This document shows positions 6,373 to 25,460 of a DNA stretch of 64,000 nucleotides, in pieces. The notes beneath the pieces are model-generated. The model searched no databases, was not told the origin of the DNA, and was given only the letters and a program-made list of their open reading frames with translations. The position numbers and the translations under genes were made by a program. Origin of the DNA: a virus (Duplodnaviria; Caudoviricetes). Where the stretch lies: positions 1-64,000 of IMG/VR virus record IMGVR_UViG_3300014664_000015, one strand, 5' to 3'. Within the stretch, counting starts at the first letter, position 1, and every line of letters starts with the position of its first letter.

Positions 6373-8501
6373 CAGATTTGTCCTCCGTCCAGCATGCTGC
6401 TGTCACCGTTAAATACCGGACTGGTTTTAGTCACCGCGACAACTTCATCCCCGATCGCCCTTTCGTCCTGACCAGGTGCGCCATGTATCTCATAATGAAA
6501 TTCGAAACGACGGTTGTCGGTCAGTTGTCGGGGAGGTGGCGCTTTGTCCGCAAAATCCAGCTTCTGAAGTAATGTTTCCCAGTAACTGCTTTCCCCTTCA
6601 CCTGACAGTTCTGCCGGTCTGTCTGAAACAGGTTCAGGAGACTGTCGGGAGTTAATCTCAGGAGTTAAGAGCAATACGTCTGCGCTTTTATCCCTGTAAC
6701 GTTCGTTATCCGTGAATGATCCCTGCGCTTTGTCAGTACCCGGTAACGAATCGACATCAACATTCACATCAGGTATACGCTGTGTCGGGTATTTTGAATT
6801 CCCCTTTACATCAGGGATACGCTGTGAAGGGTATTCCGATCTCTCCTCAGATCTTCCCTCTGCTGCTGTCCAGTTAAGGGAAGGATAAACATCGACATTG
6901 ACCACCGGCTTATCCGGTGAGATGTTGTCTGCGGATCCCTTCGGTTTTTCCGCTGCGGGCCAGACGCTACTTTTTTCAAGGGAGGGAAAGGAAGGAAGTC
7001 TGTAATTATTCCAGGCGCCGGCAGTCCTGTCGGATGTTTCATGTCCCGGTTGCACAGACGTCTCCTGGTTCTGGTTGAGTGCTGAATCCCAGGAGAACGG
7101 CGCGCCGTTGCTTTCCGGCGTCACGTATTTATCGAGCGTATTGTTGAAGGTGTCATCGTCGTCGCGGAAAAATCCCCGGGTGTCCCGGTACGATTTTTTC
7201 ACATCTTCAGGCAGGTCCGGCTTTTCCTTCAGTTGCTGCTCAAACCATTCGCCCTGACCATTGCGTTGCGCCGTCATGCGTGCAATATCAACCGAGCCGG
7301 TCATGGCCAGCGATTTGAGCACGTCCCGCTGATCGCTTCTCTCATCCGGTAAAAGCCAGGACAGTTTTTTCGCCAGCGCGTAAGCCACTTTCCCGACGAA
7401 CACAATGCCCTGGCCGAACGTCAGCACGCCGGGGTAAAGATCATTTCGCAGGAAACTGACAATGCGTTTGATCCCGCCCCCCTTAAACCACTCCGCCATA
7501 TCATCCGTCAGCCGGCGGATATCCGGTGCCAGCTCGTTTCCCAGTTGCCCTGAGATTTCCGCTACAGCCGAGGAGAAGACAGTGCGCAGGCTGGTAATGG
7601 CGCGGTTGCCCTCCATCGCCCCTTCAGCCCCCTCTTTCGTGACGAGGTTATAACGCCGCTGCTCGTCCATCAGGTCACGGTAGCTTTTGCCTGACTGCTT
7701 CAGCAACATCAGCAGTTTGCTGGCCTCGCCGCCAAACAGCGAATCCAGTGCAAACGACGCTTTCGACTCGTCCTGCATGCTGAGCGCACGCTCGACGATT
7801 TTTTCGAACTGCGCCATATCGCTGAGGCCCGCAAAATCCCCCGCCTTAAATCCCAGCGTTTCAAACGCATCCTGAAGAGAACCCTGCTTGCCGTTCTGCT
7901 TGTACTCTCCCGCCTTGTGAAGGTACTCCTCGAACAGGTCGCCGATGTTCTCCCCGTTCATGTCGTACTGCTTCGCGAGCGTATCCCAGGCATCAAACGT
8001 CGGGATATCGACGCCATAGCTTTTCGCCACGCCTGCCCGTCGGGCCGTTTCTGCGTTGGTGGCCGCAGGTGCAATCAGGGTGCCCAGGGCGGAAGCCACC
8101 ACGCCACCGCCCCCAATCGCCAGCCCGGGAGCCACCATCCCGCCCAGTTGTCCGGCCATACCGAGCCCACGGCGAAACAGCCCTTTCCCTGCCCCCTTGA
8201 AGGCGGCCAGCCGTTGCGTCTTCTGCATCTGCTGATTCAGCTTCTGCTGTTCGGCCTCCGTCTTGCGGATTTCACGGGAGACGTCACTGTAACGCCGTTT
8301 AAGATCGCCAAGACTTTGCCCGGCCAGCTTCGCGCGCTTAATCTCAGCCGCCAGCCTGGACTGGTCTTTCGTCAGTTTTTCTGACTGCTTTCCGACGTCC
8401 TTCAGGCTTTTTTGCAGGCTGTTCGCTGAACGGCTCCAGGAGCTGTCGATACTGCCGCCAAAGGTAATGACGGCCTTAAGGTTCTGGCTTAATCCGGCCA
8501 C
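6369..8501 (-). CDS. Tape measure protein
   Basis: 710 aa after the tail chaperone; N-terminal coiled coil and Gly/Ala-rich segment. Confidence 0.85.
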   Translation of the reverse strand: MAGLSQNLKAVITFGGSIDSSWSRSANSLQKSLKDVGKQSEKLTKDQSRLAAEIKRAKLAGQSLGDLKRRYSDVSREIRKTEAEQQKLNQQMQKTQRLAAFKGAGKGLFRRGLGMAGQLGGMVAPGLAIGGGGVVASALGTLIAPAATNAETARRAGVAKSYGVDIPTFDAWDTLAKQYDMNGENIGDLFEEYLHKAGEYKQNGKQGSLQDAFETLGFKAGDFAGLSDMAQFEKIVERALSMQDESKASFALDSLFGGEASKLLMLLKQSGKSYRDLMDEQRRYNLVTKEGAEGAMEGNRAITSLRTVFSSAVAEISGQLGNELAPDIRRLTDDMAEWFKGGGIKRIVSFLRNDLYPGVLTFGQGIVFVGKVAYALAKKLSWLLPDERSDQRDVLKSLAMTGSVDIARMTAQRNGQGEWFEQQLKEKPDLPEDVKKSYRDTRGFFRDDDDTFNNTLDKYVTPESNGAPFSWDSALNQNQETSVQPGHETSDRTAGAWNNYRLPSFPSLEKSSVWPAAEKPKGSADNISPDKPVVNVDVYPSLNWTAAEGRSEERSEYPSQRIPDVKGNSKYPTQRIPDVNVDVDSLPGTDKAQGSFTDNERYRDKSADVLLLTPEINSRQSPEPVSDRPAELSGEGESSYWETLLQKLDFADKAPPPRQLTDNRRFEFHYEIHGAPGQDERAIGDEVVAVTKTSPVFNGDSSMLDGGQIW

Positions 8502-23133: not shown

Positions 23134-23226
23134 CGGTCCCCCTCATATTGCTGTGAATCCTCTCAGTAAATTTGAGGGGAAATAAAAAAAGGCCACCCAA
23201 TGGCAGCCTTATTAGATAAGCGTTTA

Positions 23227-23451
23227 TTAATATCGCTTCGCAGCGCTTACTGGTGTTCTTTCTGACCAATCAGGCCTCTCTCCAGCCATGATCGCACGCT
23301 GTTGCGTCGGCGTCACAGACTGGGTGATGTCAGGCATTGGTTTGTAATCAGGTTGTTTAGGTGGGCTTAAAACCAGATCAGAACTACAACCTGACAGCAG
23401 AAAAATCGCAAGTAAGGATGAATTAAACTTGAACACTCTATACCCTTCCAA
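23227..23451 (-). CDS. Small lipoprotein moron
   Basis: Signal peptide with LLSGC lipobox; own terminator at ~23184-23210. Confidence 0.65.
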   Translation of the reverse strand: MEGYRVFKFNSSLLAIFLLSGCSSDLVLSPPKQPDYKPMPDITQSVTPTQQRAIMAGERPDWSERTPVSAAKRY

Positions 23452-23475
23452 TGGGACGAAAGTTTGAAAAATCTG

Positions 23476-23580
23476 TGGCGCCGGGTGCCTCCCGGTGACT
23501 TATCTCTGGTTATCAAAGTCGCGCGCATACCTGCAAATAGCAGTTAACCAGACGCCCCACCGCTTAGATGGGATTCACCA
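23476..23580 (-). ncRNA. Cloverleaf structured RNA candidate, copy A
   Basis: UGGUG...CGCCA closing stem and three internal stems; conserved ends shared with copy B. Confidence 0.65.
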
Positions 23581-23635
23581 CATGCATAACTTACTCAGGA
23601 TATATTCACGCGGTCAATAGTTTATCTGTATCGAC

Positions 23636-23660
23636 AAAAAAAGCCTGCTCGGCAGCAGGC
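23636..23660 (-). terminator. Intrinsic terminator between the two RNA copies
   Basis: GCCTGCTGCCGAGCAGGC followed by T7 on the minus strand. Confidence 0.75.
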
Positions 23661-23691
23661 ATAGTTGCTAAGTTGGCAATAGCTGAGAGAG

Positions 23692-23801
23692 TGGTGCCGG
23701 GTGCCTCCCGGTGAGAATTACTCCAGCAAACATTCCCGCGTCTGAGAGGTTTCCTTTTCAGGTAACTGCTGGAACGCCCCTCCGCATAGGGGGATTCACC
23801 A
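23692..23801 (-). ncRNA. Cloverleaf structured RNA candidate, copy B
   Basis: UGGUG...CACCA closing stem; CCCCU/AGGGG, UCCAGCA/UGCUGGA and CCGGG/CCCGG stems. Confidence 0.65.
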
Positions 23802-23893
23802 CCAAAATGCTTTCAGAACACATCCATTCCGCAGGATGCTTAAATAGCATATGTGCAGTACAAAGAATCTGCCAAGTAATCAGATGAATATAT

Positions 23894-24085
23894 TCATTTC
23901 AGTGGCACAGACAGTGGGCCTTCAATCACTTCAGCCTCACCGTTATGGCAAATATCATCACCTCGTGTCAGATGCCAGACACCAGTTATTGTCTGGCCCG
24001 TTTCAAGATCCTCAGTGATACCGTCGGTGTAGTAAGCTACCTGCACTACGCCGTTGTGCTGTATCCAGTAGAAACCTTCTTTCAT
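23894..24085 (-). CDS. Hypothetical 63-aa protein
   Basis: AGGAGGAG RBS, protein-like composition (MKEGFYWIQHNG...). Confidence 0.7.
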   Translation of the reverse strand: MKEGFYWIQHNGVVQVAYYTDGITEDLETGQTITGVWHLTRGDDICHNGEAEVIEGPLSVPLK

Positions 24086-24914: not shown

Positions 24915-25460
24915 CTAGCCTAATTGTGCGAATTTGAGGAAAACAGCTTCGATTGTCGTTGTTTCACAGACCATAACATACCCACTCTTATCCAGAACGA
25001 AGCCAAACGAAGAATAGTAACCAAGCAGCTCCGGCACTGGTTCAATAATGCGGATTTCTTCACATTCAACTGCTTTGCAGAACATATACGCACTCATGAG
25101 CGTGATCAGAACCATGCGTCCTTTAAGTGGATGCTCTTCATCATCACGAGTGAAGCGCTCAATCATATGAATGTTGAATGTGTGGCTTTCGGTGTCGAAA
25201 ACGCATAAAGCAGCGCCATCGGGTACGCCCTGCACTGCACCATGCGCTACGAACTTGATGCATAGCTCAAATTTGCTTGGATCGTTTCCATGGGTAGCGA
25301 GCGCATAATCCCACTCTAACTGACCAAAACCACCACAAAGTATTCTATAGTCATCATCGCTGATTGGGCCGACAGCCAATGGAAGCTGAATATTATCCAA
25401 AATAAGCTGGATATTATTTCTAACTGATTGGCCAATCTCTTCCAATGAAAGCATAAACAC
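24915..25460 (-). CDS. GNAT-fold (N-acetyltransferase-like) moron protein
   Basis: PLKGRMVLITL helix and EPVPELLGYYSSFGF resemble GNAT motifs A/B; low GC. Confidence 0.6.
   Translation of the reverse strand: MFMLSLEEIGQSVRNNIQLILDNIQLPLAVGPISDDDYRILCGGFGQLEWDYALATHGNDPSKFELCIKFVAHGAVQGVPDGAALCVFDTESHTFNIHMIERFTRDDEEHPLKGRMVLITLMSAYMFCKAVECEEIRIIEPVPELLGYYSSFGFVLDKSGYVMVCETTTIEAVFLKFAQLG

Follow-up and report, generated by a model that had tools for sequence, protein, structure and literature searches.

Two adjacent RNA units of the STnc100 family, with a predicted pseudoknotted core, in the late leader of a lambdoid prophage

What are the two similar structured RNA units that lie one after the other, just upstream of the lysis genes, in a prophage known from an IMG/VR provirus record of 75,995 nt, and do they form a family of their own? 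An initial annotation, made from the letters of the DNA, saw in them a novel family of tandem cloverleaf RNAs, four-way junctions of tRNA-like outline ending in CCA, and compared them with the P4 CI and P1 C4 RNAs. The window analysed here is a 64,000-nt stretch of the record. The two units are related and occupy its minus strand; we call the upstream one copy A and the downstream one copy B. In pairwise alignment the shared 5' block (UGGUGAAUCCC..GCGG.GGGGCG) and 3' block (UCACCGGGAGGCACCCGGC.CCA) are identical or nearly so, and every stem named in the initial annotation (closing stem, stem 1, long middle stem) can be drawn in both copies, as can the CCGGG-AGGCA-CCCGG hairpin (23711-23697 in A, 23495-23481 in B). 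The terminator placed between the copies is also there, as a stem at 23660-23643 followed by a U run.

The initial annotation had proposed a comparison with Rfam, the STnc100 model first. We scanned the whole window with the Rfam covariance models at curated thresholds, and found four matches: two to STnc100 (RF02076, gathering score 47 bits), one to isrI and one to tRNA-Arg. Copy A scores 77.6 bits (E 7.5e-15) over the full model, positions 1-206 with the terminator included (23832-23632), and copy B scores 54.1 bits (E 7.7e-9) over the core alone, positions 31-147 (23582-23474); core-only matches of this extent recur in other genomes. A model built in this work gives the two copies 90.5 and 87.6 bits. 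A permissive scan of 23380-23900 (E <= 10) returned no further family: no C4, isrK, tRNA or tmRNA, and no riboswitch or ribozyme similarity; nor did the Rfam scan of the window find an antisense partner of the AgvB or AsxR type. Both copies have the conserved 5' and 3' blocks of STnc100, its closing helix and its helices P1, P3 and P4, and they share its position in the late region of a lambdoid prophage, between a Q-like gene and the lysis genes. Copy A has the family terminator as well, whereas copy B lacks leader, linker and terminator and continues into an open reading frame. We conclude that both units are almost certainly members of STnc100, with EcOnc27/sRNA103 and PasD1/2 as relatives. 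The family is widespread: in a sample of 151 species-representative genomes from the family of the Enterobacter relative, 19 contain STnc100 matches, often several per genome.

According to published reports, STnc100 members are transcribed in E. coli O157, and one of them, STnc100_4, has been verified by Northern blotting (PMC5331693). The STnc100 copy 3' of stx2B overlaps EcOnc27/sRNA103, which binds Hfq (Hfq-CRAC and Northern) and whose over-expression raised fimZ and espA transcripts (PMC12711010, PMC7873438). At least eight Sakai prophages have a pair ('dyad') of Hfq-binding sRNAs in the interval from late promoter to lysis genes (PMC7873438). PasD1/2 of EPEC depend on Hfq for stability and have many RIL-seq partners (PMC8550237), and PasD has been reported as a structural homologue of STnc100 on the basis of RNAalifold, a nested-only method (bioRxiv 10.64898/2026.05.13.724894). 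The accessible portions of this literature establish no target, seed or physiological role for any member. EcOnc27/sRNA103 and PasD1/PasD2, here likened to the two units by description through their published overlap or structural homology with STnc100, resemble them in the position between late promoter or Q and the lysis genes, in being often paired, in a length of 160-240 nt and in the intrinsic terminator. The partner in an E. coli 'dyad' is often an antisense sponge (AsxR, AgvB); here another STnc100 unit of the same strand takes that place. The claim of novelty falls, since both copies score above the gathering threshold of a family that is already catalogued and has published members, expressed and bound to Hfq.

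The fold of the core is best approached through homologues. A pattern scan of viral contigs gave 120 loci (cited below, with other related loci, by numbers prefixed with L), and a looser regular expression gave 158 elements, 116 of them distinct; 85 distinct representatives were aligned with MAFFT, without structural fitting. Six helices, all of which can form in both window copies, pair in 90.4% of the cells of this alignment, compared with 38-46% once the partners are shifted by 1-3 columns; the counts made on the core helices span 90-91% and, after shifting, 38-49%. In 20 pairs both sides have changed, and none of 500 shuffles reaches any of the observed measures. Support for the structure comes from this comparison and not from single-sequence folding, in which the energies are unremarkable (z = -0.94 and -1.99 for the two copies). 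The initial view that these late-leader units belong to a structured RNA family under selection, with stems that covary, is borne out.

As read from these sequences, the core is a six-helix pseudoknot, in which five helices meet in a junction with almost no linker bases and a further helix, P2, joins the strand that follows Px to nearly all of the P3 loop. It is not the plain four-way junction proposed at first, because the 3' strand of P2 lies in the loop of the covarying P3 and because a further 3-bp helix, Px, is present. The closing helix P0 has 8 bp in the alignment and reaches past the 'CCA' (pair 7-153 is AU in 37 homologues and GC in 37; pair 6-154 is CG in 31 and UA in 20). The trinucleotide itself is CCA in 65 of the 85 homologues, CCU in 7, UCA in 6, CCG in 4 and CUA in 3; it is base-paired inside a closing helix of 7-8 bp that extends beyond it, and departures from CCA are compensated on the 5' strand, so that the constraint is on pairing and not on a CCA end. 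P1 is almost constant, apart from a few changes that are compensated; in P3 all pairs covary, and P4 (CCGGG/CCCGG, loop AGGCA) does not vary at all. Px, which was proposed independently by RNAalifold, pairs GCG or GCA right after P1 with a conserved CGC or UGC right before P3 (pair 35-101 is GC in 46 homologues, AU in 23 and UA in 5). Across very diverged phages two kinds of constraint can be told apart: there is hardly any variation in P1 and P4, in the loops of these two or in the bases of the junction, and in P0, Px, P2 and P3 pairing is kept up by compensatory change. Pairing of the CGC before P3 with a GCG in the P1 loop was considered first; the Px partner is the one better supported by RNAalifold. 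A single sequence, L095:5918-6042 (-), has GUG for GCG in the P1 loop and CAC for CGC in the linker; this double change could hint at a tertiary pair between P1 loop and linker that competes with Px, and other variants do not support it.

The long middle stem of the initial annotation, P2, is real and covaries; it was the placing of its 3' strand in a junction arm that did not hold, the strand being enclosed by P3 in copy A (GGGAAU[..UGCUGGA..]AUUCUC) as in copy B (GACUU[..UAACCAGA..]AAGUC). Both the MAFFT and the model-based alignments shift register within the P3 loop, and a column-wise count gives P2 as 67% paired; P2 was for this reason judged by an alignment-free permutation test, with 73 distinct combinations of 5' strand and loop and 56 different helix sequences. 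With its own partner a 5' strand has a longest complementary run of 6.86 on average, whereas permuted partners give 4.80 +/- 0.13, a difference that none of 2000 permutations equals; the duplex energy is -9.6 kcal/mol for own partners versus -5.2 kcal/mol for others. Typically P3 has 8 bp and a loop of 9 nt (median), and P2 has 7 bp, with loop flanks of 1 + 1 nt. With flanks this short P2 uses almost the whole P3 loop, a geometry that may be likened to that of kissing-loop complexes, in which almost the whole loop is used. The long connector, which carries a variable hairpin, could easily span a P2/P3 stack, and in this model P2 and P3 would coexist; the alternative is that they alternate as a switch. 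In the Rfam consensus-structure line shown by cmscan, the P2 strands and Px are unpaired, whereas both covary here. The accessible parts of the searched literature on STnc100, PasD and EcOnc27 contain no mention of the P2 pseudoknot or of Px.

Positions of the units, their helices and the neighbouring features in the window
Feature	Positions	Strand	Evidence or remark
Q-like antiterminator, phrog_753	26380-25775	-	
181-aa gene, phrog_4350	24915-25460	-	no Pfam at E <= 0.01; only phrog_4350 matched
tRNA-Arg(UCU)	24251-24175	-	ARAGORN and Rfam tRNA model
63-aa ORF, conserved, phrog_1856	24085-23894	-	E 2e-40; isrI match falls on this ORF
isrI match	23990-23890	-	Rfam, 66.6 bits
Promoter-like site of copy A, TTGGCA-18-TATGCT	23846..23875	-	consensus scan
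Copy A unit, full-length STnc100 (leader, core, ~30-nt linker, terminator)	23632..23832	-	RF02076, 77.6 bits
Copy A core, 114 nt	23690..23803	-	read from sequence; covariation in 85 homologues, permutation test for P2
Copy A P0, closing helix, 7 bp	23803-23797/23696-23690	-	
Copy A P1 (stem 1)	23793-23789/23783-23778	-	
Copy A Px	G23777-G23775 with C23740-C23738	-	
Copy A P2 (pseudoknot, long middle stem)	23773-23767/23728-23722	-	
Copy A P3	23737-23732/23718-23713	-	
Copy A P4	23711-23707/23701-23697	-	
Copy A intrinsic terminator, 7-bp GC-rich stem, loop 4, U7	23636..23660	-	terminator scan; inside Rfam model match
Promoter-like site of copy B, TTGACC 23617-23612, 18-nt spacer, TAAGTT 23593-23588	23588..23617	-	
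Copy B, STnc100 core alone	23474..23582	-	RF02076, 54.1 bits, model 31-147
Copy B P0, closing helix, 7 bp	23582-23576/23480-23474	-	
Copy B P1 (stem 1)	23572-23567/23561-23556	-	
Copy B Px	G23555-G23553 with C23523-C23521	-	
Copy B P2	23552-23545/23512-23505	-	
Copy B P3	23520-23516/23501-23497	-	
Copy B P4	23495-23491/23485-23481	-	
Small lipoprotein ORF, GTG 23436, signal ...LLSGC (lipobox), proline-rich	23227..23436	-	ORF list
First terminator 3' of copy B, between lipoprotein ORF and holin	23189..23210	-	terminator scan
Two holins	23133-22479	-	
GH19 endolysin	22479-21850	-	

Copy A is a complete unit, with a predicted RNA of ~200 nt; the ~30-nt linker between its core and terminator is variable and single-stranded. 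Its promoter-like site, the -10 hexamer of which (TATGCT) is kept in L024 and L056, predicts a start near 23839 and a leader of ~36 nt with a small hairpin. Promoter-like sites are enriched upstream of units across the family: the mean best score is 7.67 versus 5.88 in random windows of the same loci, and scores of at least 9 occur upstream of 22% of units versus 2% of random windows. Of the 23 strong sites, 15 have a -10 that ends at a single position relative to the unit, so that transcription is predicted to begin with the first bases of the closing helix. On the 3' side, 107 of 148 units are followed by a terminator that begins no more than 90 nt from the core, usually at 20-30 nt; in 40 of the 148 none was seen, which is an upper bound, as the scan missed at least one imperfect terminator (L018:1609). 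Copy A has its own terminator 20-35 nt after the core (model 176-206) and copy B has none, and together with the up to 40 terminator-less members this indicates that the terminator is typical of the family, not obligatory.

Tandem arrangement is likewise a recurrent property of the family, since more than one unit is found in 26 of the 121 sources with a regular-expression match (120 loci and the window). In the model search, multi-copy arrays run on one strand, usually with a spacing of 100-150 nt, and have up to five copies. One three-unit array includes, between two STnc100 units, a weak divergent relative of the core (L013:3370-3480 (+), 29 bits with the model built here). Such a relative is found also in L029, L045, L050, L064, L105 and L117; it keeps a P2-like loop pairing (GUAUC/GAUAC), has its own terminator in six of these seven loci (not in L050), and may represent a PasD-like or other sister family.

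Copy B is organised differently. The possible promoter of the initial annotation, TTGACC-N18-TAAGTT, exists at 23617-23588, although the copy to which it belongs, there lettered A, is the downstream one, named B here. Its predicted start is the first base or two of the closing helix; TTGAC is invariant across four diverged loci, and the -10 ends at the modal position of the family. The -10 sequence (TAAGTT) is weak, and the consensus scan did not list the site. The terminator scan found nothing within 160 nt after copy B, and nothing before 23210. A U run at 23471-23467 was rejected as a terminator, having no adjoining simple hairpin and not being kept in L056. The small lipoprotein ORF starts 38 nt after the copy; it matches no Pfam or PHROG family, and was seen again in only one of the 120 STnc100 loci (L024, 95.7%), there too 38 nt after a B-type unit. 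In L056 and L124 a 62-aa ORF takes its place. B-type units without a terminator are those of the window, L024 and L056; the B-type unit of L051 has its own. The Shine-Dalgarno region of the lipoprotein ORF can fold into a small local hairpin by pairing with a UCCC that precedes it. Having a promoter-like site and no terminator, copy B is most likely the 5' leader of the lipoprotein transcript, which would be roughly 390 nt long and include the small lipoprotein gene.

The wider gene order on the minus strand is that of a lambdoid late region: a RecA-dependent nuclease/DUF968 gene, RusA and the Q-like antiterminator, then the 181-aa gene, tRNA-Arg, the 63-aa ORF, unit A with its terminator and unit B, and then the lipoprotein ORF, a terminator, two holins, the GH19 endolysin, spanin-like ORFs and terminase. 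Judged by this order, the STnc100 pair sits in the late-leader 'moron' slot of a lambdoid, Gifsy-like phage; matches to Gifsy-1 and to Escherichia phage PHB10, at about 80-83%, cover parts of the region. Among named relatives that share the A-B pair, the closest are prophages found in Enterobacter hormaechei and in Enterobacter sp. (L124, L125), and the source is probably an Enterobacter prophage. The E. hormaechei prophage has further STnc100 cores 3' of its lysis cassette (L124:5667-5777 and 6956-7096 (+)), so the family is not confined to the gap between Q and holin.

A functional linkage to the immediate neighbours, as parts of a 'translation-centred system', was considered and rejected: the 181-aa gene occurs in none of the 120 STnc100 loci, the lipoprotein ORF in one, and a tRNA, among the loci checked, at L082 and L085 only. 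The 181-aa gene had been proposed as GNAT-like, a proposal that no Pfam family at E <= 0.01 supports. A real tRNA does stand beside the units, as first noted, 340 nt upstream, and ARAGORN and the Rfam tRNA model recognise no other; its neighbourhood is incidental, because in five related loci checked those with an A-B pair (L024, L056 and L124) have no tRNA, and those with one (L082 and L085) have the A core alone. In 10 of the 120 loci an STnc100 unit has a homologue of the 63-aa ORF beside it, which in some cases comes immediately after a unit that lacks a terminator. The isrI match lies entirely within this ORF, and 'IsrI' may belong to the mRNA of a small protein instead of being an sRNA in its own right.

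The units themselves are mosaic. Unit A has its leader, linker and terminator in common with the A-position units of L024 and L056, and its middle module (P2 strand, insert and P3) differs from theirs; the same module is identical to that of L082 and L085, whose flanks are unrelated. In these two loci (L082:2498-2760 (+) and L085:7373-7625 (+)) the unit A core follows a tRNA-Arg(UCU) after 61 nt, without the leader and promoter-like site seen in the window, and it may form part of one transcript with the tRNA. Between STnc100 subfamilies the 3' linkers are unrelated. The swapping of the middle module independently of its flanks indicates cassette-like exchange inside a conserved core, the conserved arms apparently serving as recombination anchors.

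Taken as a whole, the locus probably consists of two adjacent STnc100 genes carried as 'moron' cargo between Q and the lysis genes. As to their mode of action we lean, by a little and by analogy with the relatives, towards Hfq-dependent regulation in trans with a structured scaffold. Copy A would be expressed in the lysogen as an independent sRNA gene and would bind Hfq through the U-tail of its terminator, and STnc100 RNAs would act in trans, base-pairing with mRNAs of host or phage to regulate them, a role suggested by the Hfq association of the relatives. The conserved pseudoknotted core would be a stabilising or protein-docking scaffold, with specificity carried by the variable parts, that is, the 3' linker and the swappable middle module; copy B would be a variant that uses the core as leader of a small moron mRNA. 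In Hfq sRNAs the seed is normally the conserved part, and a terminator U-tail is usually needed. A nearly invariant, pseudoknotted, multi-helix core is unusual for such an RNA and would be at least equally expected if the core did the work itself, and the absence of a U-tail counts against reading copy B as an Hfq sRNA.

If the activity lies in the core, a conserved protein, RNA or small ligand would be bound or titrated by it, the core serving as decoy, sponge or sensor; pairing by a variable seed would play a secondary part or none, and in copy B the core would act in cis on the lipoprotein gene. The near-invariance of P1, P4, loops and junction bases beside compensating helices agrees with this, as do the unrelated sequences of the 3' linker, the usual place of a seed, the exchange of the middle module, and the terminator-less core-only copies that precede ORFs in several loci. 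Set against it are the lack of any Rfam riboswitch or ribozyme similarity in 23380-23900 (E <= 10), the recovery of homologues with Hfq and mRNA partners in RIL-seq (PMC8550237), and the variety of the genes after terminator-less copies (lipoprotein in the window and L024; a 62-67-aa ORF in L056, L124 and others), a variety that makes a dedicated cis-regulator less likely. On balance we regard an active core as unlikely. Its fuller version, in which the nearly invariant core is the working part of STnc100-class RNAs, acts in copies like B as a cis leader that controls whichever moron gene comes next, and has its recognition tuned by the middle module, is offered as a speculation that we rather doubt.

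A reading of the units as cis-acting elements of the late transcript, which serve processing, stability or insulation of morons between pR' and the lysis genes and are not genes at all, is improbable. Units lie on the strand of the matched late gene in the few loci read off (a reading, not a tally), arrays of 2-5 occur at this one position, and the L082 and L085 units stand directly behind a tRNA with no evident promoter. Against this, most units end in a terminator of their own, promoter-like sites are over-represented at a constant distance from the units, and homologues are discrete small RNAs in uninduced lysogens (PMC5331693, PMC8550237). Q-mediated read-through would ignore the terminators, yet it leaves the promoters unexplained.

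The P1/P7 C4 and P4 CI RNAs, small, structured and phage-encoded like the present units, are antisense RNAs processed by RNase P; they belong to immunity regions, whereas both copies lie in a late leader, and neither sequence nor structure (Rfam C4, isrK) is similar. The initial idea of a tRNA-like four-way-junction RNA processed by RNase P, whether an immunity RNA of this kind, a tRNA decoy or an antitoxin, is very improbable: the several branches enclosed by the closing helix, the frequent ..CACCA of the 3' strand and the nearby tRNA-Arg speak for it, but both cores are pseudoknotted, with six helices and no D, anticodon or T arms, their CCA is paired and variable, nothing matches tRNA, tmRNA, C4 or isrK at E <= 10, 107 of 148 units go on 3' into linker and terminator, and linkage to the 181-aa gene or to tRNAs is absent.

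As a discovery the pair matters little, for the family has an Rfam model, published expressed members and a wide occurrence. The pseudoknot and the 3-bp Px, which are missing from the cmscan structure line, should be considered when STnc100 RNAs are modelled, aligned or mutated, and they raise the question why a fold of such complexity and conservation should be required in an Hfq sRNA. The mosaic units, and the terminator-less copies fused to different small ORFs, bear on the way in which prophage sRNA repertoires diversify.
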